Virus record (IMG/VR): IMGVR_UViG_2541047815_000004
Strand: one strand, 5' to 3'
DNA length: 48,720 nt
Origin: a virus
Lineage: Duplodnaviria > Heunggongvirae > Uroviricota > Caudoviricetes
Part shown: positions 2,618 to 47,081 of the stretch, piece after piece
Layout: each line of letters starts with the position of its first letter
Numbering within the stretch: the stretch's first letter is position 1
Notes under the pieces: model-generated
Seen by the model: only the letters and a program-made list of their open reading frames with translations
What the model was told of the DNA's origin: nothing
Databases searched by the model: none
Program-made: the position numbers and the translations under genes

Positions 2618-3208
2618 ATGTCTCGAATTTTTGCTTACTGTCGGATATCAACGCTGGATCAGACCACCGAAAATCAACGCCGGGAAATCGAAAGTGCAGG
2701 TTTTAAAATCAAACCTCAGCAAATAATCGAAGAACACATTAGCGGCTCAGCAGCAACCAGTGAGCGTCCTGGTTTTAACCGGTTGCTTGCTCGCCTGAAA
2801 TGTGGTGATCAATTGATTGTGACAAAACTGGATCGCCTTGGTTGTAATGCAATGGATATCAGGAAAACAGTGGAACAACTGACCGAAACAGGTATCAGAG
2901 TGCATTGCTTAGCATTGGGGGGCATTGACCTGACCAGTCCAACTGGAAAAATGATGATGCACGTAATTTCAGCAGTCGCTGAATTTGAACGAGACCTTTT
3001 ACTTGAACGCACTCATTCCGGGATAGTAAGAGCCCGCGGCGCAGGGAAACGTTTTGGTCGACCACCTGTGTTAAATGAAGAACAGAAACAGGTGGTATTC
3101 GAACGAATTAAGTCAGGTGTAAGTATAAGTGCCATTGCCCGGGAATTCAAAACCTCGCGGCAAACCATTTTAAGAGCCAAAGCAAAACTTCAGACACCTG
3201 ACATATAA
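2618..3208 (+). CDS. pinQ: Serine recombinase, DNA invertase of the Pin/Gin/Hin/Cin family, 196 aa
   Basis: N-terminal resolvase catalytic motif (YCRISTLDQ with the active-site Ser), C-terminal HTH; length and sequence match Pin invertases. Confidence 0.9.
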
Positions 3209-3305
3209 AAAATAATCTCGGTGTGAGATGCTTTACGTCTTCCAAGCCCCCTTCCTTGCCGTAAATGGAAAGATACATCTAATTATAGAATTTATATGTT
3301 TTACC

Positions 3306-3881
3306 CTACGGCAGTGCTGGCCATTCAATATCCTGTGCAGTTGACGTATCAACACGGTTCAGCAACACCCGATACTTTTTCCAGGCTTCCAGCAATGAGG
3401 TTTCTTCCTCCGTTGCGATTTCCAGATCTACAGCATCCTGAAGTGGCGCAATATGCTCACTGGCTACCTGCATCAGGCTGTTTTTTGTTTCTTCCGCCTC
3501 TCGGATCCGGAACAGTTTTTCTGCTTCTGCATCTTTCACCCAGGCTGTGCCGTTCCACTTCTGAAACTCCCCTTCCGGCGATAACCAGGTAACATTTTCC
3601 GGTAACGGACCGAGTTCAGAAATAAATAACGCGTCCCCTGACGCTACGTCATAAACCGTTTTACCCCGATGGTCTTCATCGAGATGCCACGATGCCTTAT
3701 CACTGTTGAAAACAGCCACAAAGCCAGCAGGAATATCTGGTGGTGCAATATCGGTACTGTTTGCTGGCAGACCTGTATGAGGCGGAATATATGCGTCACC
3801 TTCACCAATAAATTCATTAGTTCCGGCCAGCAGATTATAAATTTTTATGGTCCGTGGTTGTTCACTCATTCTGAATGCCAT
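3306..3881 (-). CDS. tfaQ: Tail fibre assembly protein (Tfa), 191 aa
   Basis: Immediately downstream of stf with a 1-nt stop/start overlap; sequence typical of lambda Tfa homologues. Confidence 0.8.
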
Positions 3882-28764: not shown

Positions 28765-28971
28765 CTTCATTTTCACTTTTTTAAATCCAACGACAGACGG
28801 CTGGCATTTAAGTATTGTGAAATATTATCAAATGTAATCATCATTGATTTACAAAAGATACATTTTGCCCCGAAAGGATTCATGTCAGAAACATCAAAAG
28901 ATGATGTTCTATACTGGGAACCATGACAACACGGGCATCTAAAGTGAATATGGTTTGTAATATTGTCTACC

Positions 28972-29184
28972 TCAAAGCGCCACTACATGAACAGCGGCAG
29001 GACCTTTAGGTCCGTTCTCAATACCAAATTCAACTTCCTGATTCTCAGTTAATGTTTTGAAATCGTTGCTCTGAATTGCTGAGAAATGGACAAACACATC
29101 TTTGCTGCCATCTTTCGGCGTGATGAAACCAAAACCTTTTTCAGGGTTAAACCATTTCACTAAACCAGTCATTTTGTTAGACAT
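28972..29184 (-). CDS. cspI: Cold shock protein CspA family, 70 aa
   Basis: Cold-shock-domain motifs KWFN..KGFGFI and VHFSAI; recognised as CspI. Confidence 0.9.
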
Positions 29185-29546
29185 AATTATTACCTTTTGA
29201 AGAAATTAGCCCTTGGGCAGAATGGTCCGAAAAAAAATATCAGAGAGAAAAACCAACAAGGAAATCTCAAGAGGTACAAATAATAAAATTATAACAATGA
29301 CTGCTTCAGATAAATTTGTAACAAACCAGAACACCATTAACGCATGATTAACCACCCATAGCAAGGATTACTTTTGTAAAGAAAAACACAGCAATGAAAG
29401 AATAGCTTTATTTATTAATAAAACGTGTCATTCTGATTAAGACCTTTTATCTTGCCCTTAAGATTTCAGGAATTTTGGCTCATGGAAGAGTCCTTTTTAT
29501 TTAAATTTTACATTCCGCGATGTAAATGTTCCGATTTAATATTACC

Positions 29547-30080
<534 letters not shown>

Positions 30081-30459
30081 TCACGACGAATAACCTGACC
30101 GTAACAGTTATTTGAACGAATGCGGCAATCGCGTCCGCCATCCTTAATCCACCAGCGAATCGCTTCGCATGCACCTTTACGATCACCAGCATTCAGCCGC
30201 TTATAAAACGTCGACGGGAAACACTTACCGGGGCCAATGTTATAGGGACAAAATGACGCGATACCCGCTTTTTGTGGTTCGGTCAGTGGTACTTTAATAT
30301 TGCGCTCCACCCATGCCAGCGCCTTATCACGCTCAATGGCGTTGACCTGGTCGCATTTTTCCTTCGACAGTTTCATATTGGGAAAAACGGTTTTTGATCT
30401 TACCCAGCAATAGTGGACACGCGGCTAAGTGAGTAAACTCTCAGTCAGAGGTGACTCAC

Positions 30460-30759
30460 ATGACAAAAACAGTATCAACCAGTAAAAAACCCCGTAAACA
30501 GCATTCGCCTGAATTTCGCAGTGAAGCCCTGAAGCTTGCTGAACGCATCGGTGTTACTGCCGCAGCCCGTGAACTCAGCCTGTATGAATCACAGCTCTAC
30601 AACTGGCGCAGTAAACAGCAAAATCAGCAGACGTCTTCTGAACGTGAACTGGAGATGTCTACCGAGATTGCACGTCTCAAACGCCAGCTGGCAGAACGGG
30701 ATGAAGAGCTGGCTATCCTCCAAAAGGCCGCGACATACTTCGCGAAGCGCCTGAAATGA
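30460..30759 (+). CDS. insE: IS3 transposase OrfA (InsE), 99 aa
   Basis: HTH-containing OrfA recognised as IS3 InsE; track ORF starts at an upstream GTG. Confidence 0.85.
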
Positions 30760-31622
30760 AGTATGTCTTTATTGAAAAACATCAGGCTGAGTTCAGCATC
30801 AAAGCAATGTGCCGCGTGCTCCGGGTGGCCCGCAGCGGCTGGTATACGTGGTGTCAGCGGCGGACAAGGATAAGCACGCGTCAGCAGTTCCGCCAACACT
30901 GCGACAGCGTTGTCCTCGCGGCTTTTACCCGGTCAAAACAGCGTTACGGTGCCCCACGCCTGACGGATGAACTGCGTGCTCAGGGTTACCCCTTTAACGT
31001 AAAAACCGTGGCGGCAAGCCTGCGCCGTCAGGGACTGAGGGCAAAGGCCTCCCGGAAGTTCAGCCCGGTCAGCTACCGCGCACACGGCCTGCCTGTGTCA
31101 GAAAATCTGTTGGAGCAGGATTTTTACGCCAGTGGCCCGAACCAGAAGTGGGCAGGAGACATCACGTACTTACGTACAGATGAAGGCTGGCTGTATCTGG
31201 CAGTGGTCATTGACCTGTGGTCACGTGCCGTTATTGGCTGGTCAATGTCGCCACGCATGACGGCGCAACTGGCCTGCGATGCCCTGCAGATGGCGCTGTG
31301 GCGGCGTAAGAGGCCCCGGAACGTTATCGTTCACACGGACCGTGGAGGCCAGTACTGTTCAGCAGATTATCAGGCGCAACTGAAGCGGCATAATCTGCGT
31401 GGAAGTATGAGCGCAAAAGGTTGCTGCTACGATAATGCCTGCGTGGAAAGCTTCTTTCATTCGCTGAAAGTGGAATGTATCCATGGAGAACACTTTATCA
31501 GCCGGGAAATAATGCGGGCAACGGTGTTTAATTATATCGAATGTGATTACAATCGGTGGCGGCGGCACAGTTGGTGTGGCGGCCTCAGTCCGGAACAATT
31601 TGAAAACAAGAACCTCGCTTAG
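30756..31622 (+). CDS. insF: IS3 transposase OrfB (InsF), 288 aa, DDE catalytic domain
   Basis: Recognised as IS3 InsF; overlaps insE in the -1 frame as expected for IS3-family frameshift fusion. Confidence 0.85.
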
Positions 31623-31831
31623 GCCTGTGTCCATATTACGTGGGTAGGATCATTTTCCATCCACCACTGTGGCACCCCGACAGATGGTCCATATGCCAGA
31701 ACCATCGCGGTATGCCATTGTGTGGTTACCTTCTTTTTCGTCCAGAAACTGGTCAAGTATCTGAGGAGCAGATGCGCCAGCACCAATCAGCGCCAGAACG
31801 GCAGCCGACAGGCCGTATCTGATTTTTGTGT

Positions 31832-32143
31832 TCATATATATTTATGATGAGGACGCTCGTGCTTATTGGCAGGATTTTCAATCTTAAAGGAGTACTGATG
31901 CTGCAGATAAGACTCAACTTTTTCTGACAATTTTTCTGCTACTTCCAGGAAGACTTGCCGGACGCTCCTTCTGGCTGCTGCCTCATAAAACTCCAGCGCA
32001 GCTCCTTCAACACGGTCCATGGCGACATCCAGGTCAAAAATTTCACCGTCAAAGCGTTCCTTGTCCTGTAAGGCTACAGTTACCGTAACTTTATTCTCAA
32101 AATTACGGACTCCTTTCACAACCAGTTCATAGTCTTGAGTCAT
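31832..32143 (-). CDS. ydfR: YdfR (DUF1327) lysis-cassette-associated protein, 103 aa
   Basis: Recognised from memory as Qin YdfR; between holin and endolysin. Confidence 0.75.
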   Translation of the reverse strand: MTQDYELVVKGVRNFENKVTVTVALQDKERFDGEIFDLDVAMDRVEGAALEFYEAAARRSVRQVFLEVAEKLSEKVESYLQHQYSFKIENPANKHERPHHKYI

Positions 32144-32836: not shown

Positions 32837-33117
32837 GAGATTGTGGTGCTTTTTGTGGGAGTCATCCACTTACGCACTTTGTTTTGCGATGCCAGCAGTT
32901 AGCTTCTGCTGTGAAACTATTCATGCAGCAAACCTGCACTTCACCACAATGGTTAGCATACTTTTCCTGATTAAGATTTTGCCAAATATGCTAGCCATTG
33001 TTTCATGTATTGGACCTCCTTACTTTTTATTAAAGAGATCCAATATTCACTACTCTGTCCGTATCTCTACTCAGGCATCAGCCTTCTTCGTTATCGTATA
33101 CAGACGAGCGATGAATT

Positions 33118-33333
33118 TTAATCAGTAATGATGACATTTGCTGCTGCAGGACCTTTAGCACCACTCTCTATAGAGAAGGTAACCTTTTGACCTTCAAATA
33201 AGGTTCGATAATTATCATTCTGAATCGCAGAAAAATGCACAAACACATCTTTACTACCATCAACAGGAGAAATAAAGCCGAAACCTTTATCAGCGTTAAA
33301 CCATTTTACTAAACCAGTCATTTTATTTGACAT
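33118..33333 (-). CDS. cspB: Cold shock protein CspA family, 71 aa
   Basis: Cold-shock-domain motifs; recognised as CspB. Confidence 0.9.
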
Positions 33334-33633
33334 TCTACATTCCTTAACTTGAGCCTTTCGGCATAAATGGTTTGCATAACAGAAACGACTTCGTACTTAA
33401 TTGGAGAGACTCAAAGAAGGAATAAGTGAATAACACCTGAAATGAGAACTGCTTTAGTAAACTACTTCGTATATCGTCTGTTCTTCAAACCGACGCAATC
33501 ATTAACGCATAGTTGAACATATGAAGCAATGTTTATTTTAGACATCCAGCCATCTTCAACCCCATCAAAAAACTATAGCTTTCTTCAGGAACGTGTGTAT
33601 AGTGCGCCAAGTTATCAGTATTAAGGAATTTTT

Positions 33634-36429: not shown

Positions 36430-36681
36430 TTATTCTTCTGAAAAAGCAGAAAAGCCAGCTTTTATTCCGATCTCTTTCAATACCTGTAATGAAGTGACAA
36501 ACTCACCTTCGCGCAAGATAAATCCGTCCGTGACCCGAGCATCCACAAAATTAATTAACGCAGCCCCATTCTTTCGCAAACACAGAATGCGGTAATGACT
36601 AACAATGTTTCCATTTTCAACGCACACAGCATAGAGGCCATCTTCACAAAAAATTTTACGCAGTTCTTCGATGTTCATCAT
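36430..36681 (-). CDS. rem: Rem, small prophage protein, 83 aa
   Basis: Recognised from memory as Qin Rem. Confidence 0.7.
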   Translation of the reverse strand: MMNIEELRKIFCEDGLYAVCVENGNIVSHYRILCLRKNGAALINFVDARVTDGFILREGEFVTSLQVLKEIGIKAGFSAFSEE

Positions 36682-36897: not shown

Positions 36898-37053
36898 TTA
36901 CTCCTCAGGTTCGTAAGCTGTGAAGACAGCGACCTCCGTCTGCCCGGTTCGGATTCGTACCTCGCAGAGGTCTTTCCTCGTTACCAGTGCCGTCACTATG
37001 ACGGTTAAACAGATGACGATCAGGGCGATTAACATCGCCTTTTGCTGCTTCAT
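36898..37053 (-). CDS. hokD: Hok-family type I toxin, 51 aa
   Basis: MKQQKAMLIALIVICLTVIVTALVTRKDLCEVRIRTGQTEVAVFTAYEPEE; AAGGAG Shine-Dalgarno; in-frame upstream extension in the track ORF. Confidence 0.85.
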   Translation of the reverse strand: MKQQKAMLIALIVICLTVIVTALVTRKDLCEVRIRTGQTEVAVFTAYEPEE

Positions 37054-37516
37054 AGCCTGCTTCTCCTTGCCTTTCGGCACGTAAGAGGCTAGCCTACATG
37101 TGTCTAGCATGAAATTGGCCTCAGATTAATGTTAAGCGTCTTGCAGGACGCGTAATGTTAACTGGGGCTTTTCTCTATCTGCCGTTGGTGTTCATGCCCG
37201 AGGCAGATACGTCAGTGATTCAATACAACTATTGGGTATAGTTCCTCTGATTTTTTCTGTGGAAATGGGGCACAACCACTAGTCACCACCAGCACTTCTT
37301 TTAATACGCAAAGTCCGACACAAGCTAACCTTCTAGTCCGCTTTGAGCGAGGAACGGACGTTGTATAGGTTAGTTAGCGCATCCTCATGAATTGGTGTTC
37401 CTTAAGAGATTCATAACGAAGCGTTTGCATCGGCGGTAGTGTTTATAATCGGTATGAGCCCCCGAGAGGGCTCACATTTCAAATGTATTACGAGGTTACG
37501 CTCAATTAGAAACTTC

Positions 37517-39808
37517 TCATATGTTTCCGCGATAAATCACATTCAAAGCCCGTCGAGAGTAAGACATCAGTTCACCTGGCGTGATGGGTTCTGATGATGC
37601 CTGAGGGTTCGTGTCATGATGATAGCGACCAGCATAATTGTTAATTTCATTCAACTCAGGTACCAGTGATTTAGCGAAGAATAACGGATCGCTCGGTTGT
37701 GCTTGTGCAATCTGCGCTACTACCTCTCCAAACAGATTTCCCGGTGAAATTTGCCCCGGGAAACGACGATGCAGATACCCTTCAAGAAGCGGTCTGATCG
37801 CCACCGCCGTATCGTGAAGCTGATGATGAGCACCATCGGCAAATCCGCTCACCAGACGATGATTTTTATAGTAGGGAGATTCACATTCCAGATCGATATC
37901 TAGTTTATCCAAGCTACTGAAATCACCAGCAATGTTGACAATGCGTAAGGTTGAAATGTCCTGCATTTGAGTAGCAGGTATTTTCAGGAACTCATCTCGC
38001 ATGGTACGGATAAAGAACAGGTCGTGCGCCAAGATGATTACCTGCAAGCTGCGAAGGTAAATCTGTTTAATGATGGTGATTGTGTGGTTCCTGCGATGAT
38101 TGTCCAGACTACACATCGGATCATCAATCACTACAATTTTTCTCTCAAGATCAACGTCATGAAGCAACACTGAAATAAAGAATGCGAAGGCTAGCGTCCT
38201 TTTGTCCCCTTCACTCAATGAGCTCCGGAAACTGGATTCTTCTCCCGTTAGCGAAATCTTTTCCCCTCTAAGTTCAATTGCATATTCAGACTTAGGCTCA
38301 CCGCCGCCAGCATAGTTATAATTAATTTCTGTGATGCGAAAGCTTGCACCAAACTTCATCAATAAATCATTGATGGAGGATTGATACTTTCCAAGGGTCG
38401 AGTCCATGATCGCATTGAGTTCAGCCCTCCGTGTTTCCTTCAGTTCAGAGGCAACCACTTCAGCAGTTTTAGCGGTCTGATAATCAGAGATAAAACCTAC
38501 TATCTCAGGTGATAGACGAAGTCGTGTTGCTTCATACTGGGATAATGTAACCCGCAGGGTTTCTTCATTTTTGGTTTCAAGCGCCTCTTTATAAGCCTGA
38601 ATATCCAGATTGGCAGCTTCCACGCCCGAATTAAAGATAGAAAGCTCATCATTGATTGCAGTTACTGCATCCGCGATTTCTTTTTCATAGTCGCCTTGGG
38701 TCTTTGCAAGCGGATCGTTTTTCTTGGCTTCCGTTAAGCGGTTCAGCGATGATTGAAGACCTTCCAAACTAGCTTTAATTTTATCTAAATCAGGGAGACT
38801 CACGGGCAACTGGAGACAATCTTTCCAATTTTCAGTCACTAAACCAGCCTGCTCAATCTTGCTTTCAAGTAAGGCCAGATTGAAAACGCGCATGGCAGTC
38901 GCCACAACTTTATCTAGGCCTGTGACCTGATTAAGTAAGGCTTTGTATGCAAGATTAAACCGCTCCCGGTAGTACCGGATCAGTTCAATACCCTCCAGGC
39001 TTTGCGTACAGAAAGGACAATATTCGTCTTTTATATAATCAAGGCCGTTGCTCGCCCATCGCTCAAAACCTTCGACATTGATATGGTCAATATGCGCACA
39101 GACGACCTCTTCTGCACCCGCACTGAGGCTGTCATAGCTAGCTGCAAGAGTGGAAAAAAAAGAACTGAAATCAGGAGCGTAAAGAGGTAACGAAAGATAA
39201 CCCGTACGGTTGCGGATCGTCTCTATTCTTTTGCAGAGATCCAGTTCTGATTCGACTAATGCAATTTTTTCCTGAATGTTATCTTCCTGAACAGGCTTTA
39301 TGTATTTTGCTAGAGTTACATTCCCCCGGGCTACTGTCAGCTTTTCACTTGCCAGTCTCGTAACTCTCTTGGCCTCCTCTGCCTTGTCTGATGCATCAAT
39401 AAAAGCAGCCCTCGCGGCTACCGCATCACTGCCCAGCGCAAAACTCAGCAGTCGCTTTCTATGGCTAGCGCTGATTTCACCACCTGAGTAAACATTACGG
39501 TCAACAAAATCTAGGTCGAAGACGTGCACATCTGAATACTTACCATTCCATGTATCGTTATCGTAAATCGCACGATTTCCCTGCGAAAACTGCAGATGAA
39601 TATTTTGAGGGGTCGTTTCCCCAATCGTTTTCCTGTGCCGTACAATATCTGGATTTAATTCAGTGTAGGAACGCAGAATTGACGCAAGGGTGGATTTACC
39701 ACGCCCATTATCAGCATAGACAAAGGTCATTTTTTTAAAGGACATACCAGCAGGACGGATATCCTGGAATAAACCCACGCTGGTAATTTGATGAATTCTT
39801 TCAAGCAT
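37517..39808 (-). CDS. ABC/SMC-type P-loop ATPase with coiled-coil insertion carrying a CxxC motif and an unassigned C-terminal domain, 763 aa; candidate anti-phage defence protein
   Basis: Walker A ADNGRGKST (aa 32-40); about 500 aa predicted coiled coil with CPFC at aa 264-267; signature-like LSEGDK, Walker B KIVVIDDP, D-loop SLD and H-loop ILAHD near aa 530-610; about 150-aa C-terminal domain with RPLLE and HH motifs; AAGGGA Shine-Dalgarno. Confidence 0.6.
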   Translation of the reverse strand: MLERIHQITSVGLFQDIRPAGMSFKKMTFVYADNGRGKSTLASILRSYTELNPDIVRHRKTIGETTPQNIHLQFSQGNRAIYDNDTWNGKYSDVHVFDLDFVDRNVYSGGEISASHRKRLLSFALGSDAVAARAAFIDASDKAEEAKRVTRLASEKLTVARGNVTLAKYIKPVQEDNIQEKIALVESELDLCKRIETIRNRTGYLSLPLYAPDFSSFFSTLAASYDSLSAGAEEVVCAHIDHINVEGFERWASNGLDYIKDEYCPFCTQSLEGIELIRYYRERFNLAYKALLNQVTGLDKVVATAMRVFNLALLESKIEQAGLVTENWKDCLQLPVSLPDLDKIKASLEGLQSSLNRLTEAKKNDPLAKTQGDYEKEIADAVTAINDELSIFNSGVEAANLDIQAYKEALETKNEETLRVTLSQYEATRLRLSPEIVGFISDYQTAKTAEVVASELKETRRAELNAIMDSTLGKYQSSINDLLMKFGASFRITEINYNYAGGGEPKSEYAIELRGEKISLTGEESSFRSSLSEGDKRTLAFAFFISVLLHDVDLERKIVVIDDPMCSLDNHRRNHTITIIKQIYLRSLQVIILAHDLFFIRTMRDEFLKIPATQMQDISTLRIVNIAGDFSSLDKLDIDLECESPYYKNHRLVSGFADGAHHQLHDTAVAIRPLLEGYLHRRFPGQISPGNLFGEVVAQIAQAQPSDPLFFAKSLVPELNEINNYAGRYHHDTNPQASSEPITPGELMSYSRRALNVIYRGNI

Positions 39809-41509: not shown

Positions 41510-42011
41510 AATTCCATCCAGCTTTTTGTTGGTATTGCTGTCGATACGCAAGTTTGAAAGCAATTGCTTTTTCTATAAGTTCGTCAGTTTCACGATCCAC
41601 TACGGCAGGATCAGCAAAAAGCAGTCCGGACTCCACCACATCGCCATATTCTTTGTTTAACCCGGCGATCATGTACGTGATGCTTTTTCCGTCACTAATT
41701 TCACGATACAACCTGAAATCATTAATCCGGATAGCCTCCATAATTGCAGGCACTAGCGCCGTGAACTTTTCACGCTTATCCCTGGTGTCGATAGCCTTCC
41801 AGCGTTCGAATATCTTCACTCGATTAACGCCAAGCGCTCGCTGATCAACCGCGCCACCTTCATCTGTGACACGCTGAACATCGATGTTCGGGCGCTCTTT
41901 CAAAGCCCAGAATGCTTCAGTGATTAATATCGTCGCCTGCTCCTGTGTCATTCCTGGTCGACATATCCAGGCATCCAGAGCCTCACGAGCCTGTTCAGGA
42001 GTGATTTTCAT
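41490..42011 (-). CDS. YdaT-like protein, 173 aa, in cII-equivalent position
   Basis: Directly downstream of the Cro-like gene; internal segment KIFERWKAIDTRDKREKFTALVPAIMEAI resembles Rac YdaT as recalled. Confidence 0.5.
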   Translation of the reverse strand: MKITPEQAREALDAWICRPGMTQEQATILITEAFWALKERPNIDVQRVTDEGGAVDQRALGVNRVKIFERWKAIDTRDKREKFTALVPAIMEAIRINDFRLYREISDGKSITYMIAGLNKEYGDVVESGLLFADPAVVDRETDELIEKAIAFKLAYRQQYQQKAGWNYEPSFC

Positions 42012-42222
42012 TGTTCAACCGCCCCGCCCGCTTCGTCTTACGATATTCGTCATAAACCTTGGGATCATACAGAAGCTCGCCGCCAGATGCCTCCTGTAGA
42101 CGCATCGCGCGACCTTCAGGAACTAGCTCTTGCCATTGAGAAACAGCAGATGGGTCAACGCCAGCAGCTTTCGCTACTTTGGCTTTCGTACCGTAAAAAT
42201 TAATTACGTCTGATTTAAACAT
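41995..42222 (-). CDS. dicC: Cro-like (YdaS/DicC family) transcriptional regulator, about 75 aa from Met10
   Basis: C-terminal half LVPEGRAMRLQEASGGEL.YDPKVYDEYRKTKRAGRLNNENHS matches DicC as recalled; divergent from dicA. Confidence 0.75.
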   Translation of the reverse strand: MFKSDVINFYGTKAKVAKAAGVDPSAVSQWQELVPEGRAMRLQEASGGELLYDPKVYDEYRKTKRAGRLNNENHS

Positions 42223-42234
42223 CGCACCTCCAAT

Positions 42235-42250
42235 ATTGAGTTTTCTCAAT
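42235..42250. promoter_or_regulatory. Candidate operator palindrome in the dicC-dicA divergent intergenic region
   Basis: Perfect inverted repeat ATTGAG-TTTT-CTCAAT, followed by three TCAAG(G) direct repeats at 42260-42280. Confidence 0.4.
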
Positions 42251-42299
42251 GCTAATCACTCAAGGAATCTCAAGTCAAGGGTTATTAAGATATCTAAAT

Positions 42300-42707
42300 A
42301 TGAACGAGAAAACTTTAGGTCAACGCATTAGAGAAAGACGTAAGCAGGTAGGCTTAAGTCAAAACGGTTTAAGCAAAGCTGCTGGCGTATCTGGCTCATC
42401 AATTTCATTATGGGAAAGTGACCATACAGCCCCGCGCGGGCAAAATTTGCATCGCCTCGCCGAGGTATTGCAATGTTCACCAACCTGGATACTGTTTGGC
42501 GACGAGGACAAAACACCAGCTCCCCCTGTTTCACTCGATAGTGCCTTAGACTTATCGGAAGATGAGTTAGAGATGCTGCGTTTGTATCGCGCACTTCCTA
42601 AATCAGAGCAACAAGCACAACTCAGCGAACTCCGCGCCCGCGTTGAGAATTTTAATCGCCTGTTCACCGAGCTATTAGAGGCTCGCAAACGCAACAAGCA
42701 TCAATAA
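42300..42707 (+). CDS. dicA: Prophage repressor, HTH XRE family (P22 C2-like), 135 aa from Met18
   Basis: HTH segment LSQNGLSKAAGVSGSSISLWESD and C-terminus VLQCSPTWILFGDEDK...RARVENFNRLFTELLEARKRNK match DicA as recalled. Confidence 0.85.
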   Translation: MNEKTLGQRIRERRKQVGLSQNGLSKAAGVSGSSISLWESDHTAPRGQNLHRLAEVLQCSPTWILFGDEDKTPAPPVSLDSALDLSEDELEMLRLYRALPKSEQQAQLSELRARVENFNRLFTELLEARKRNKHQ

Positions 42708-42899
42708 TCATCCCTTCACAAAATTTTAAAGCCTTACATTTCAATGTATTGGCTTTATCTTGCGCCAATGCTTGAGTTTTCTCATCAAAAAACCTTGACG
42801 AAAAATAATGAGAAAACTAAATTACCTCCATCAACACACCGCACGGTGTTCTCAGCAAACAGTTCCGCTACCCCGGCGTTAAGGGGAAATGAGGTCAGC

Positions 42900-43055
42900 A
42901 TGGATACTATCGATCTTGGCAACAGCGAATCTCTGGTATGTGGCGTGTTCCCCAACCAGGACGGCACGTTCACCGCGATGACGTATACCAAAAGCAAAAC
43001 GTTTAAAACCGAAAATGGTGCCCGTCGCTGGCTGGAAAGAAACTCAGGTGAGTGA
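42900..43055 (+). CDS. ydfA: YdfA, 51 aa
   Basis: MDTIDLGNSESLVCGVFPNQDGTFTAMTYTKSKTFKTENGARRWLERNSGE; Shine-Dalgarno GAGG. Confidence 0.7.
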   Translation: MDTIDLGNSESLVCGVFPNQDGTFTAMTYTKSKTFKTENGARRWLERNSGE

Positions 43056-43056
43056 T

Positions 43057-43632
43057 ATGGATTTCGACACAATCATGGAAAAGGCTTACGAAGAATACTT
43101 CGAAGGCCTTGCCGAAGGCGAAGAAGCTCTCAGCTTCAGTGAGTTTAAACAGGCACTCAGAATAAGAATGTGCTCTCACAATGACGCAGAGCACAAATAT
43201 GAGAAGCAAAATCAGACCGCAGAAAATTTTGTTCTGGAACCCGGAGAAACGCTTTTCAAAATTCCCGTTACGTGCCCCATTTGCGGTTTTACATCAGAAG
43301 AACTTGACGACTCCTGTAACAATCAGGAAACAACCAAGTATGTCGAAGATGATACCGAGTGCGCACGAAGAACGATTATATCCACGAGTCCAAACTCCAG
43401 GACCAATAAATCTCACTTTGAGAGGGTGATTAATCCACTCCCCCAAACCAATAAAAAAGATGCCGGAGGACAAAAAACCCAATGGAACAACGGGATATCT
43501 GTCAAAAAAAGACGTTCCATTAAAGACAAACAACGCAGCGCCAACAACTGTAAGCGCTTTATACCAGTAATCAATTTTCATGTTCTTAAGCGGATTTATA
43601 GGTGGTTGCGACATTGCTTAATGAATCCTTAA
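43057..43632 (+). CDS. ydfB: Contiguous 191-aa ORF covering the region K-12 annotates as two genes, ydfB and ydfC; contains a CPICG zinc-ribbon-like motif
   Basis: Starts MDFDTIMEKAYEEYFEGLAEG (YdfB-like) and continues through RMCSHNDAEHKYEKQNQTAENFVLEPGETLFKIPVTCPICGF (YdfC-like) without a stop. Confidence 0.55.
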   Translation: MDFDTIMEKAYEEYFEGLAEGEEALSFSEFKQALRIRMCSHNDAEHKYEKQNQTAENFVLEPGETLFKIPVTCPICGFTSEELDDSCNNQETTKYVEDDTECARRTIISTSPNSRTNKSHFERVINPLPQTNKKDAGGQKTQWNNGISVKKRRSIKDKQRSANNCKRFIPVINFHVLKRIYRWLRHCLMNP

Positions 43633-43891
43633 AACTGTGGTGATTTTAAGGATACCACCTCGCCTGACGTGGTTAAAAGCAGGCACACAACACGAAAGCG
43701 CACGGCGAAGTTCGTCTCACTGTACGGTGTCGTTAAATTTAATTCGACCGTGCGCTTCCGGTTGTGGCAACCCGCGAAATGGCGCGGCGGTAAGTATGGC
43801 GGGGTTATTCCTTCCCCGTAGAGGACACCGAGTTGTCAGGTTGACCATACGCTTAAGTGACAACCCCGCTGCAACGCCCTCTGTTATCAAT

Positions 43892-43944
43892 TTTCTGGTG
43901 ACGTTTGGCGGTATCAGTTTTACTCCGTGACTGCTCTGCCGCCG
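43892..43944 (+). ncRNA. dicF: DicF small RNA (ftsZ-targeting sRNA processed from the dicB operon transcript)
   Basis: Sequence TTTCTGGTGACGTTTGGCGGTATCAGTTTTACTCCGTGACTGCTCTGCCGCC followed by TTTTT matches DicF as recalled; between ydfC and dicB. Confidence 0.8.
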
Positions 43945-44118
43945 TTTTTAAAGTGAGTTTTGTGATGCGGTGAATGCGGCTAAGCGCACGCGGAACAGTT
44001 AAAACCAAAAACAGTGTTATGGGTGGATTCTCTGTATCCGGCGTTAATTGTTAACTGGTTAACGTCACCTGGAGGCACCAGGCACTGCATCACAAAATTC
44101 ATTGTTGAGGACGCGATA

Positions 44119-44307
44119 ATGAAAACGTTATTACCAAACGTTAATACGTCTGAAGGTTGTTTTGAAATTGGTGTCACTATCAGTAACCCTGTATTTACTG
44201 AAGATGCCATTAACAAGAGAAAACAAGAACGGGAGCTATTAAATAAAATATGCATTGTTTCAATGCTGGCTCGTTTACGTCTGATGCCAAAAGGATGTGC
44301 ACAATGA
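44119..44307 (+). CDS. dicB: Cell division inhibitor DicB, 62 aa
   Basis: MKTLLPNVNTSEGCFEIGVTISNPVFTEDAINKRKQERELLNKICIVSMLARLRLMPKGCAQ; GAGGA Shine-Dalgarno. Confidence 0.85.
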   Translation: MKTLLPNVNTSEGCFEIGVTISNPVFTEDAINKRKQERELLNKICIVSMLARLRLMPKGCAQ

Positions 44308-44495
44308 ATTCAGCATTTGCGCTTGTTCTGACAGTTTTTCTTGTTTCCGGAGAGCCAGTTGATATTGCAGTCAGTGTTCACAGGACAATGCAGGAGTGTA
44401 TGACTGCAGCAACCGAACAGAAAATTCCCGGTAACTGTTACCCAGTCGATAAAGTTATTCACCAGGATAATATCGAAATCCCGGCAGGTCTTTAA
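44304..44495 (+). CDS. ydfD: YdfD small membrane/lysis protein, 63 aa
   Basis: MNSAFALVLTVFLVSGEPVDIAVSV... with N-terminal transmembrane segment; start overlaps the dicB stop (ATGA). Confidence 0.75.
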   Translation: MNSAFALVLTVFLVSGEPVDIAVSVHRTMQECMTAATEQKIPGNCYPVDKVIHQDNIEIPAGL

Positions 44496-44588
44496 AACAG
44501 TTCCGTAATAAATATCCGGTTTCATTCTTATATGCCAGCAATGGCAGGGATTTGTTCATCCTTAAATCTGTCATGAGGTTAAAACAAA

Positions 44589-47081
44589 ATGAGTAAAGTC
44601 TTTATTTGCGCCGCTATTCCTGACGAACTGGCAACAAGGGAAGAAGGCGCTGTGGCTGTAGCCACAGCCATTGAAGCTGGCGACGAACGCCGTGCTCGAG
44701 CAAAATTTCACTGGCAGTTCCTGGAACATTATCCGGCTGCTCAGGACTGCGCTTATAAATTTATTGTCTGCGAGGATAAACCTGGCATACCCCGCCCTGC
44801 CCTCGATTCATGGGATGCTGAATATATGCAGGAAAACCGCTGGGATGAGGAGTCTGCTTCTTTTGTCCCGGTTGAGACTGAATCCGATCCGATGAACGTC
44901 ACTTTTGACAAGCTGGCCCCTGAAGTACAGAACGCTGTCATGGTTAAGTTCGACACATGTGAAAACATCACCGTTGATATGGTTATTAGCGCACAGGAAT
45001 TGTTGCAGGAAGACATGGCAACATTCGACGGACATATCGTTGAAGCGTTGATGAAAATGCCAGAAGTTAACGCCATGTATCCGGAGCTTAAGTTGCACGC
45101 CATTGGGTGGGTTAAGCATAAATGTATTCCTGATGCTAAATGGCCCGAAATTCAGGCAGAGATGCGCATCTGGAAAAAACGTCGCGAAGGTGAACGCAAG
45201 GAAACCGGAAAATACACGTCTGTTGTTGATCTCGCCCGCGCCAAAGCCAATCAACAGTACACTGAAAATTCAACAGGAAAAATCAGCCCGGTCATTGCTG
45301 CCATTCATCGCGAATACAAGCAGACATGGAAAACACTGGATGACGAACTGGCCTACGCTCTCTGGCCTGGTGATGTGGATGCCGGAAACATTGACGGCAG
45401 CATCCATCGCTGGGCAAAAAAAGAAGTTATCGACAACGACCGCGAAGACTGGAAGCGTATCTCGGCATCAATGCGCAAACAGCCTGATGCCCTTCGCTAC
45501 GACCGCCAAACTATTTTTGGCCTTGTCCGTGAGCGTCCGATCGACATTCACAAAGATCCCGTAGCACTGAACAAATATATCTGCGAATACCTGACGACAA
45601 AGGGCGTGTTTGAGAATGAAGAAACAGACCCGGGCACTGTTGATGTTCTCCAGTCATCAGAAACACAAACTGATGCAGTGGAAACCGAGGTATCTGATAT
45701 CCCAAAAAATGAAACCGCGCCGGAAGCTGAACCATCTGTAGAGCGTGAGGGGCCGTTCTATTTCCTCTTCGCAGATAAGGACGGAGAAAAATACGGTCGC
45801 GCAAACAAACTTTCTGGTCTGGATAAGGCACTGGCTGCTGGCGCCACTGAAATCACAAAAGAAGAATATTTTGCCCGAAAAAATGGCACATACACGGGCT
45901 TACCGCAAAATGTAGATACCGCTGAAGATTCAGAACAACCAGAGCCGATAAAAGTTACCGCTGACGAAGTAAACAAAATTATGCAGGCAGCCAATATCAG
46001 CCAGCCTGACGCCGATAAGTTGCTTGCTGCATCACGTGGTGAATTTGTTGAAGGGATTAGTGACCCGAATGATCCGAAATGGGTTAAGGGGATCCAGACC
46101 CGCGATTCTGTGAACCAGAACCAGCATGAATCGGAACGGAACTACCAAAAAGCGGAACGGAACTACCAAAAAGCGGAACAAAACAGCCCAAATGCGTTAC
46201 AAAACGAGCCAGAAACGAAACAGCCTGAACCAGTGGCGCAACAGGAAGTGGAAAAAGTCTGCACCGCCTGCGGTCAGACCGGCGGCGGCAACTGCCCTGA
46301 TTGTGGCGCGGTGATGGGCGACGCAACATACCAGGAAACATTCGATGAAGAGTATCAGGTTGAAGTTCAGGAAGATGATCCGGAGGAAATGGAAGGCGCT
46401 GAACATCCACACAAGGAGAACACTGGCGGCAATCAGCATCACGATAGCGATAATGAAACTAGCGAGACGGCAGATCGCTCAATTAAGGTGAACGGTCATC
46501 ACGAAATCACATCCACCAGCAGGACGTGTGACCATCTAATGATCGACCTTGAAACCATGGGAAAAAATCCTGATGCCCCGATCATCTCAATAGGTGCAAT
46601 ATTTTTCGATCCGCAAACCGGAGATATGGGACCGGAATTTAGTAAGACTATCGATCTGGAAACTACTGGCGGAGTCATTGATCGGGACACCATTAAATGG
46701 TGGCTTAAGCAATCACGCGAAGCGCAATCTGCCATTATGACCGATGAAATCCCGTTAGATGATGCACTGTTACAATTGCGGGAATTTATCGACGAAAACT
46801 CCGGTGAATTTTTTGTTCAGGTCTGGGGAAATGGAGCCAACTTCGACAACACGATTTTGCGCCGTTCATACGAGCGGCAGGGGATCCCCTGCCCGTGGCG
46901 TTACTACAACGATCGCGATGTACGCACAATCGTTGAGCTGGGGAAAGCCATAGACTTCGATGCCAGAACGGCTATTCCATTCGAAGGTGAGCGCCATAAT
47001 GCACTTGATGACGCCCGTTACCAGGCAAAATACGTTTCAGTTATCTGGCAAAAACTGATCCCGAGTCAGGCTGATTCTTAA
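44589..47081 (+). CDS. ydfE: Full-length YdfE-like protein, 830 aa: N-terminal YdfE domain, acidic repeat-containing linker, Cys4 zinc ribbon, C-terminal DEDDh (DnaQ-like) 3'-5' exonuclease domain
   Basis: N-terminus MSKVFICAAIPDELATREEG recognised as YdfE; CTACGQTGGGNCPDCG zinc ribbon; exonuclease motifs MIDLETMG, VWGNGANFD, HNALDDARYQA. Confidence 0.7.
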   Translation: MSKVFICAAIPDELATREEGAVAVATAIEAGDERRARAKFHWQFLEHYPAAQDCAYKFIVCEDKPGIPRPALDSWDAEYMQENRWDEESASFVPVETESDPMNVTFDKLAPEVQNAVMVKFDTCENITVDMVISAQELLQEDMATFDGHIVEALMKMPEVNAMYPELKLHAIGWVKHKCIPDAKWPEIQAEMRIWKKRREGERKETGKYTSVVDLARAKANQQYTENSTGKISPVIAAIHREYKQTWKTLDDELAYALWPGDVDAGNIDGSIHRWAKKEVIDNDREDWKRISASMRKQPDALRYDRQTIFGLVRERPIDIHKDPVALNKYICEYLTTKGVFENEETDPGTVDVLQSSETQTDAVETEVSDIPKNETAPEAEPSVEREGPFYFLFADKDGEKYGRANKLSGLDKALAAGATEITKEEYFARKNGTYTGLPQNVDTAEDSEQPEPIKVTADEVNKIMQAANISQPDADKLLAASRGEFVEGISDPNDPKWVKGIQTRDSVNQNQHESERNYQKAERNYQKAEQNSPNALQNEPETKQPEPVAQQEVEKVCTACGQTGGGNCPDCGAVMGDATYQETFDEEYQVEVQEDDPEEMEGAEHPHKENTGGNQHHDSDNETSETADRSIKVNGHHEITSTSRTCDHLMIDLETMGKNPDAPIISIGAIFFDPQTGDMGPEFSKTIDLETTGGVIDRDTIKWWLKQSREAQSAIMTDEIPLDDALLQLREFIDENSGEFFVQVWGNGANFDNTILRRSYERQGIPCPWRYYNDRDVRTIVELGKAIDFDARTAIPFEGERHNALDDARYQAKYVSVIWQKLIPSQADS
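46132..46184. repeat. Perfect 21-bp tandem repeat (CGGAACGGAACTACCAAAAAG x2 plus a partial third copy) inside the ydfE-like gene
   Basis: Encodes ERNYQKA-ERNYQKA in frame. Confidence 0.85.

Follow-up and report, generated by a model that had tools for sequence, protein, structure and literature searches.

The DNA analysed here (48,720 nt, one strand of IMG/VR record IMGVR_UViG_2541047815_000004, hereafter the window) is a lambdoid prophage of approximately 47 kb. Towards its right side a DicF small RNA sequence is followed on the same strand by the genes dicB and ydfD, and upstream of these are a promoter, a repressor gene and a divergent cro-like gene. The features of this region, together with a distant antirepressor gene, are as follows:

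36430-36681, minus strand: rem homologue encoding an antirepressor of 83 aa (comparison with K-12 Rem)
41995-42222, minus strand: dicC-type gene for a Cro-like regulator of 75 aa, divergent from the repressor gene (NF007282, K-12 DicC)
42235-42250 and 42284-42299: operator-like 16-mers ATTGAGTTTTCTCAAT and ATTAAGATATCTAAAT, respectively, in the dicC/dicA intergenic region (motif scan)
42300-42707, plus strand: DicA-family repressor of 135 aa (NF007257, Pfam HTH_3)
42771-42786: operator-like site just upstream of the -35 element (repeat search)
42795-42800 and 42818-42823, plus strand: -35 (TTGACG) and -10 (TAAATT) elements, 17 nt apart, of the dicBp-equivalent promoter (promoter scan)
42807-42822: operator-like site overlapping the spacer and the -10 element (repeat search)
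42900-43055, plus strand: ydfA, 51 aa, DUF1391, first gene of the operon (PF07151, E = 8.8e-28)
43057-43158, plus strand: ydfB′, of which only the first 34 codons are homologous to K-12 ydfB
43158-43675: 518-bp cassette, in place of the 3′ end of K-12 ydfB and of ydfC
43294-43614, minus strand: gene for a 106-aa three-helix membrane protein, antisense to the operon and within the cassette
43693-43760, plus strand: upstream hairpin, predicted here as well as in K-12; putative RNase III site for the 5′ end of the ~190-nt precursor
43892-43944, plus strand: DicF small RNA, 53 nt (Rfam RF00039, K-12 alignment, fold)
43907-43943 (stem) and 43945-43949 (T-run), plus strand: DicF intrinsic terminator (fold)
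~43944-44112, plus strand: long-range helix in the DicF-dicB interval, predicted for window and K-12 alike; putative downstream RNase III site
44119-44307, plus strand: dicB, 62 aa, MinC-dependent division inhibitor and ManYZ inhibitor (K-12 identity, PF05358, NF049927)
44304-44495, plus strand: ydfD, 63 aa, lysis protein reported to inhibit IspG (K-12 identity, PF07358)
44589-47081, plus strand: full-length exonuclease of 830 aa (PF16473, 3′-5′ exoribonuclease Rv2179c-like, E = 3.3e-67)

The Rfam covariance model RF00039 detects DicF at positions 43893-43944 of the plus strand with 72.5 bits (E = 3.7e-14; gathering score 48), and the match spans model positions 1-52 of 52. Alignment of positions 43892-43944 with dicF of K-12 MG1655 (b1574) shows identity at 52 of 53 bases. 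The sole difference is C53G, the last base, which lies between the terminator stem and the T-run. G53 is a common natural allele, and the exact 61-nt DicF sequence that carries it is found in 891 records, including those of LF82 and O111:H8 strains. In K-12, DicF acts together with Hfq: its 3′ part represses ftsZ and pykA, and its 5′ part represses xylR (PMC5069750). With the pairing regions taken from the same paper, the target-pairing residues of both parts are as in K-12, positions 1-52 being a complete match. In the minimum free energy fold of the 61-nt RNA (-16.6 kcal/mol), nt 1-15 form an unpaired 5′ tail, followed by a stem loop of 7+5 bp and UUUUU. In a custom scan this terminator is the strongest hairpin-plus-T-run within 42830-44130, and the same scan shows no second strong plus-strand hairpin-plus-T-run between the promoter and dicB. 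Thus the 53-nt DicF with a terminator-like 3′ end that an earlier note on this DNA described is borne out by the Rfam score, the alignment and the fold.

The translated aa sequence of DicB is identical to that of K-12 at all 62 positions. It matches Pfam PF05358 (136.8 bits, cut-off 27; E = 1.9e-40) and NCBIfam NF049927 (132.8 bits, cut-off 100), in each case over residues 1-62 of 62, and the 108 nt 5′ of the gene show no difference from K-12. The start codon at 44119 has a GAGG Shine-Dalgarno sequence upstream, and the product that begins there fits the full Pfam model. A GTG-started 97-aa open reading frame at 44014-44307, annotated in phage HannyBb, was considered as dicB and dropped in favour of this K-12 start. 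YdfD is identical to its K-12 counterpart at 62 of 63 residues; the one change, V6A, is a common natural allele, and the identical sequence is named “lysis protein YdfD” by PGAP in other genomes. The match to Pfam PF07358 (DUF1482; 92 bits, cut-off 25; E = 2.1e-26) is full length with both termini present, and intact N- and C-terminal residues are required for YdfD activity (PMC8835842). The ydfD ATG (44304-44306) overlaps the dicB TGA (44305-44307) in the sequence ATGA, in agreement with the overlap and the lengths of 62 and 63 aa given in the earlier note. From 43771 to 44620 the window differs from K-12 by 10 substitutions and one 1-nt indel in total. The module was also said to be intact, and this stands: in the K-12 alignment the pairing regions of DicF are free of substitutions, and neither dicB nor ydfD is truncated.

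In K-12, DicB together with MinC dissolves the Z-ring, and DicB also blocks ManYZ-dependent entry of phage DNA (PMC6832061). YdfD binds IspG and lyses dividing cells, and this lysis is offset by DicB (PMC8835842). Because the sequences are identical or nearly identical to those of K-12, the functions of DicF, DicB and YdfD are expected here also; for DicB we infer both the division block and the inhibition of ManYZ. The genes for the host factors concerned (ftsZ, minC, manYZ, ispG, hfq, rne and rnc) are not part of the window.

The transcript around DicF was considered at the level of RNA structure. In K-12, DicF is cut out of the polycistronic dicBp transcript, whereby a species of ~190 nt receives its 5′ end from RNase III, RNase E sets the 5′ end of the 53-nt DicF, and either the intrinsic terminator or a downstream RNase III cut defines the 3′ end (PMC10448788, PMC5069750). 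Positions 43690-44125 of the window and the K-12 counterpart were folded, which gave three elements: the upstream hairpin, the DicF terminator and the long helix. If the ~190-nt species (PMC10448788) has its 3′ end at 43944, its 5′ end would fall near 43755, within the 3′ arm of the upstream hairpin. The long helix stops right before the dicB Shine-Dalgarno sequence, and its role, according to Faubladier 1990 as related in PMC5069750 and PMC10448788, is a downstream RNase III cleavage that parts DicF from the dicB mRNA. Three stem positions differ from K-12, and all three are switches between Watson-Crick and G-U pairs. In the arm of the upstream hairpin, position 43703 (C vs U) keeps its pairing with G, and in the long helix the pairs are likewise kept at 43957 (G/A opposite U) and 43968 (C/U opposite G). 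DicF is found in the layout of the dicB operon transcript, with conserved helices on both sides as predicted processing sites and an upstream context in which 148 of 150 nt are identical to K-12. Cleavage at the upstream hairpin and at the long helix would be expected to proceed as in K-12. The K-12 homology breaks off directly 5′ of the upstream hairpin, and the entire processing unit, from the hairpin through dicB, thus moves as one block.

Upstream of this break, a block of K-12 homology at 42829-43157 contains the transcript start and ydfA as well as the 5′ portion of ydfB; the block that carries the module runs from 43675, just before dicF, to 45355 within the exonuclease gene. The ydfA gene has 97% DNA identity to K-12 and is named ydfA in near-identical genomes. 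The K-12 homology of ydfB′ stops at 43157 and its open frame continues to 43632; PGAP describes it as “ydfB incomplete, missing C-terminus”. Between the two blocks lies the 518-bp cassette, which shows no DNA match to K-12; 806 of the 5426 E. coli genomes carry it, mostly with at least 99% identity.

The minus strand of the cassette encodes the 106-aa protein. By tblastn, homologues are present in phage mEp390 (39% identity over 94% of the length) and in Burkholderia phage Bcep176 (45%), and a large protein collection holds approximately 60 relatives, mostly of 100-110 aa and 33-58% identity, from Yersinia, Herminiimonas, Reinekea and metagenomes. The motifs DYWYKA and GLGEWxNHP are near-invariant in the family. 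An AF2 model with a pLDDT of 86.8 displays three long helices and a beta-hairpin. No match was found in Pfam, PHROG, NCBIfam or PADLOC, and a Foldseek search of the model against BFVD and PDB gave no significant fold match. The distant full-length homologues, the conserved motifs and the confident model show that the 106-aa frame is a real gene. In three other lambdoid prophage contigs a 58%-identical homologue adjoins an S24-type cI repressor and points against the early-left genes, the same orientation as in the window. DicF is absent from the distant loci that bear the 106-aa gene.

On the plus strand of the cassette, the frame that continues ydfB′ gives an open reading frame of 191 or 205 aa (43057 or 43015 to 43632). 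It was considered as a gene and rejected: its relatives are near-identical sequences only (phrog_35040, HannyBb), whereas the minus-strand frame has distant full-length homologues. Thus the plus-strand frame from 43057 to 43632 is probably a shadow open reading frame of ydfB′. It is listed in PHROGs as phrog_35040 and occasionally annotated by PGAP. At the cassette, PGAP shows the ydfB fragment alone or with the shadow frame, and the minus-strand gene appears in none of the annotations examined. In mEp390, the annotated gp39 is also on the strand opposite to the conserved membrane-protein frame.

The earlier note placed the module downstream of dicA and on the same strand. A DicA-family gene is indeed located there on the plus strand, and a divergent DicC-family gene for a Cro-like protein accompanies it directly upstream of the operon; however, the repressor is not the DicA of K-12. 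Its identity to K-12 DicA is only 57%; the helix-turn-helix differs, and the C-terminal half is better conserved. It scores 239 bits against NCBIfam NF007257, “transcriptional repressor DicA” (cut-off 101), and also matches Pfam HTH_3. The DicC-type regulator is 70% identical to K-12 DicC and scores 165 bits against NF007282 (cut-off 130). Its 3′ part, up to position 42125, still matches K-12 DNA, and the immunity cassette that follows (~42125-42829) has no K-12 DNA match. Judged from its sequence, the repressor is a heteroimmune DicA-family member whose specificity would be unlike that of K-12 DicA.

The window promoter, TTGACG-17-TAAATT, is sigma-70-like and occupies the position of K-12 dicBp (TTGACC-17-TAATCT). 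Homology to K-12 is visible by eye in CATCAACACACCG, after the -10 element, the DNA match resumes by 42829, and the sequence CATCAACACACCGCACGG is conserved downstream of both promoters. The operator-like motif of the window is ATTGAG-N4-CTCAAT. In K-12, whose promoter region has a matching layout, the equivalent places bear a repeated palindrome that we read from the sequence as TGTTAG-N6-CTAACA. The four best sites of the ATTGAG-N4-CTCAAT type are found solely in the dicC/dicA intergenic region and at the dicBp-equivalent promoter. It should be noted that, with up to two mismatches, the 48.7-kb window has three copies of this motif vs 2.6 expected by chance, all three of them in the immunity region. 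Thus the number of copies is close to chance, and the argument for operators rests on their clustering and placement. Since copies of the motif flank and overlap the promoter at the dicBp position, repression of the module by the DicA-family repressor is likely. The layout resembles the pattern expected from lambdoid immunity-cassette exchange, whereby repressor, operators and promoter core would have been swapped and the operon kept.

Relief of this repression may depend on the rem homologue, whose product is 95% identical to K-12 Rem and is encoded on the same prophage as the DicA-family repressor. In K-12, the Rem antirepressor lifts DicA repression 165-fold and leads to DicB- and DicF-dependent filamentation, and spontaneous switching of dicBp is independent of recA (PMC10448788). 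A LexA box of the form CTGT-N8-ACAG, as a sign of SOS control of rem or of the operon, was not found anywhere in the window, which fits the recA-independent switching of K-12 dicBp. Extrapolating from the K-12 work (PMC10448788), we infer that the module is inducible and probably not SOS-driven; given the lack of a LexA box, induction would go via Rem or via stochastic DicA/DicC switching and not via direct SOS cleavage. The control of Gifsy-type phages similarly combines a short non-cleavable repressor with a small antirepressor (PMC10448788), but the Gifsy antirepressors are controlled by LexA and the window is without a LexA box.

The K-12 Qin dicBF operon (dicA-ydfABC-dicF-dicB-ydfDE; b1570-b1577) is the closest studied counterpart. 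Gene order is shared over promoter-ydfA-ydfB and again from the RNase III hairpin through dicF, dicB and ydfD to the exonuclease. The chromosomal site is shared also, with a truncated ydfJ on one side (the left of the window) and an intQ-type integrase on the other. The integrase gene is the last in the window and ends at its right edge, the right host junction being outside; its 98.9% DNA identity to K-12 intQ supports a locus shared with Qin. The two prophages differ in their immunity cassettes, the window being heteroimmune (DicA 57% and DicC 70% identical) with another operator motif, and in the 518-bp cassette with its antisense gene, which stands for the ydfB 3′ end and ydfC of K-12. The exonuclease gene is intact in the window, whereas K-12 ydfE is cut by IS2; this pseudogene aligns to the 5′ part of the 830-aa exonuclease gene, after which xis and int are next. 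Finally, K-12 Qin is a 20.5-kb remnant, in contrast to the ~47 kb seen here, which include genes for replication, head and tail. By local BLAST and by comparison with near-identical annotated genomes, the window prophage retains tail, head, terminase, lysis, Q, replication and immunity genes.

The module is also found in phages. The sequence 43740-44500, from the 3′ arm of the upstream hairpin to ydfD, is covered to at least 80% in eight deposited phage genomes, which include HannyBb, Tritos, PhiR42_1 and mEp460, and the Tritos record annotates DicF, dicB and ydfD. The Qin/mEp460-like phages HannyBb (PP925841), Tritos (OV696610), PhiR42_1 (PV340562) and mEp460_ev081 (LR597641) contain the dicF-dicB-ydfD-exo-xis-int block of the window with 97-99% identity, and HannyBb also shares the repressor open reading frame and the 518-bp cassette with the window. 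These four records are deposited as complete phage genomes, whereas the window copy has an endolysin gene split by an IS3-family element. The module is thus more than a fossil: a phage lineage that is still alive has it as a regular part of its early-left region. “Cargo”, the term of the earlier note, is a loose word for what appears in the window, HannyBb, Tritos and mEp460 as a native PL-type segment between repressor and exo-xis-int.

The region is very probably the DicF-dicB-ydfD segment of a Qin-type early-left (dicBF) operon that should work as in K-12. This reading builds on the sequence identity, the structural elements and the promoter/operator layout found in the window; from the experiments in K-12, repression, processing and effects on the host would be as follows. 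In the lysogen, the DicA-family repressor (42300-42707) would hold the operon off by binding palindromic operators that flank and overlap the dicBp-equivalent promoter (42771-42823). Upon loss of the repressor, through the Rem antirepressor or a stochastic DicA/DicC flip, RNA polymerase would read ydfA, ydfB′, the cassette, dicF, dicB, ydfD, exo, xis and int, with part of transcription stopping at the DicF terminator. RNase III would cut within the hairpin (43693-43760) and within the long helix (43944-44112), and an RNase E cut at 43892 would free the 53-nt DicF. DicF with Hfq would then block translation of ftsZ and pykA by its 3′ part and of xylR by its 5′ part. DicB would bind MinC, bring it to the septum and dissolve the Z-ring, and would also block ManYZ, the entry route of lambda DNA. 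YdfD would inhibit IspG and lyse dividing cells, with DicB countering this effect.

Whom the operon serves is a separate question. The module may chiefly belong to the lytic programme as a Kil-like early-left take-over function that halts division and excludes competing phages during induction, in which case “lysogen cargo” would misstate its role. This is possible, and on balance we regard it as unlikely. The module has the position of a PL operon, from repressor to exo-xis-int, in this nearly complete prophage as well as in phage isolates, and in K-12 it is repressed in the lysogenic state (PMC10448788). The lambda PL operon with kil is likewise a case of an early-left division inhibitor under a CI-like repressor, but the sequence of Kil shows no relationship to DicB or DicF. 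However, low-level DicF in stationary phase (PMC10448788) and DicB-dependent resistance to lambda (PMC6832061) are benefits to the host in K-12, and the IS element that splits the endolysin gene of the window makes a full lytic cycle unlikely. It should also be noted that a lytic role is compatible with the K-12-like operon proposed above, and that only the beneficiary differs.

The cassette between promoter and dicF should also be considered. As the antisense 106-aa gene is convergent and lies in the path of transcription, read-through to dicF could be reduced or modulated. The gene may be part of a lysogeny-expressed cassette beside the repressor and may encode a superinfection-exclusion or abortive-infection factor, with convergent transcription tuning the output of DicF and DicB from the derepressed dicBp; we offer this as a speculative and rather doubtful proposal. 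If true, this layer of control would concern roughly 15% of E. coli. In any case this variant of the operon bears a conserved antisense membrane-protein gene that is almost never annotated and apparently unstudied, and that could affect DicF/DicB output or phage exclusion.

A rival reading is that the module, intact in itself, is severed from its promoter. Convergent transcription or a terminator in the cassette would stop most dicBp transcripts before dicF, and derepression would then yield little or no DicF, DicB and YdfD. The cassette does lie between the promoter and dicF in the place of ydfC, its antisense gene is real and conserved, and a hairpin with a T-rich tract is present near 43169, on the minus strand and at the 3′ side of that gene. 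On the plus strand, however, neither a generic scan nor a custom hairpin-plus-T-run scan shows an intrinsic terminator within the cassette. The arrangement is kept at an identity of at least 99% in 783 E. coli records, out of the 806 genomes that have the cassette. It is kept also in HannyBb, isolated from bird droppings according to its record, where exo, xis and int would need read-through by analogy with lambda PL, and homologues of the cassette gene in other lambdoid prophages have the same antisense position beside cI. A severed module is thus very improbable.

Least credible of all is a promoter of its own just upstream of DicF and outside repressor control: an internal promoter upstream of dicB was once reported, according to PMC10448788, but primer extension and RNase mutants in K-12 showed no internal promoter (PMC10448788), the promoter scan gave no plus-strand sigma-70-like site in 42830-44119, and the 150 nt 5′ of DicF are almost as in K-12.

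A K-12-like operon transcribed from the dicBp-equivalent promoter is therefore the preferred reading. The module is already known and well described, and its near-identity to the studied K-12 module marks the present copy as real, apparently functional and an ordinary version of the Qin type. The strain carries a sequence-intact module whose RNA, proteins, processing and regulation are worked out in K-12, and carries it in a far less decayed Qin-type prophage of a different immunity type. An intact block under another immunity type shows that dicF-dicB-ydfD and the processing helices travel as a unit beneath interchangeable repressor/operator cassettes.

The module is widespread among complete E. 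coli genomes. The 1-kb module region is matched in 4750 of 5426, at a median copy number of two and a maximum of ten, and DicF is found in 3947 of the 5426 (~73%). The prophage of strain J31 (L002) is otherwise near-identical to that of the window and differs from it in the tail-fibre region.

The immunity cassette of the window is unlike that of the Qin prophage of E. coli K-12 (MG1655), and also unlike that of strain J31, whose prophage is otherwise near-identical. Thus at least three immunity types are present on the same Qin backbone. Relative to K-12, the Rem antirepressor is 95% identical, whereas the repressor is only 57% identical. A second cassette lies further along the early-left region, and the features concerned are as follows.

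42125-42829, immunity cassette: the 5′ part of dicC, predicted operators, dicA and promoter core
43158-43675, 518-bp cassette, in place of K-12 ydfB-3′/ydfC
43294-43614, minus strand, gene for a 106-aa three-helix membrane protein, within the 518-bp cassette and antisense to the dicB operon

Of 5426 E. coli genomes, 806 carry the 518-bp cassette. Its 106-aa protein is conserved, with near-invariant DYWYKA and GLGEWxNHP motifs; it belongs to no family in Pfam, PHROG, NCBIfam or PADLOC, and nearly all annotations leave the gene out. The homologue found in other lambdoid prophages adjoins cI, and there too it is antisense to the early-left genes. In phage mEp390, gp39 (2755-3411, annotated as 151 aa) is placed on the strand opposite to the conserved membrane-protein frame, and the deposited annotation probably names the wrong strand.

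Two further genes are interrupted in J31, one of them also in the window.

30041-30376 and 31650-31835, minus strand, endolysin (lysozyme) gene fragments
30377-31649, IS3-family element region separating these fragments, with orfA (30451-30759) and orfB (30756-31622)
37517-39808, minus strand, gene for a 763-aa AAA ATPase, with the hok/sok locus on one side and the replication genes on the other

In J31 it is IS1 that interrupts the lysozyme gene, at nearly the same position, which points to independent inactivation of lysis in the two prophages. The AAA ATPase is intact in the window and split by IS1 in J31; it has a match (E = 7e-72) to PDC-S06, a candidate defence family of PADLOC.

The exonuclease gene (44589-47081) is 2493 nt long in the window, versus 2472 nt in J31 and in Escherichia phage HannyBb. 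It contains three copies of a 21-bp tandem repeat (46118-46179) coding for ERNYQKA-type heptads, and the additional 21 nt (7 aa) would be explained by a single further copy of the repeat.

Other Rfam RNA matches in the prophage are listed below.

3340-3538, minus strand, IS009, inside the tail-fibre gene
28945-29330 and 33102-33494, minus strand, a pair of thermoregulator leaders of the cspA type, at the two clusters of cold-shock (csp) genes
37048-37214, minus strand, sok antitoxin RNA, belonging to the hokD locus
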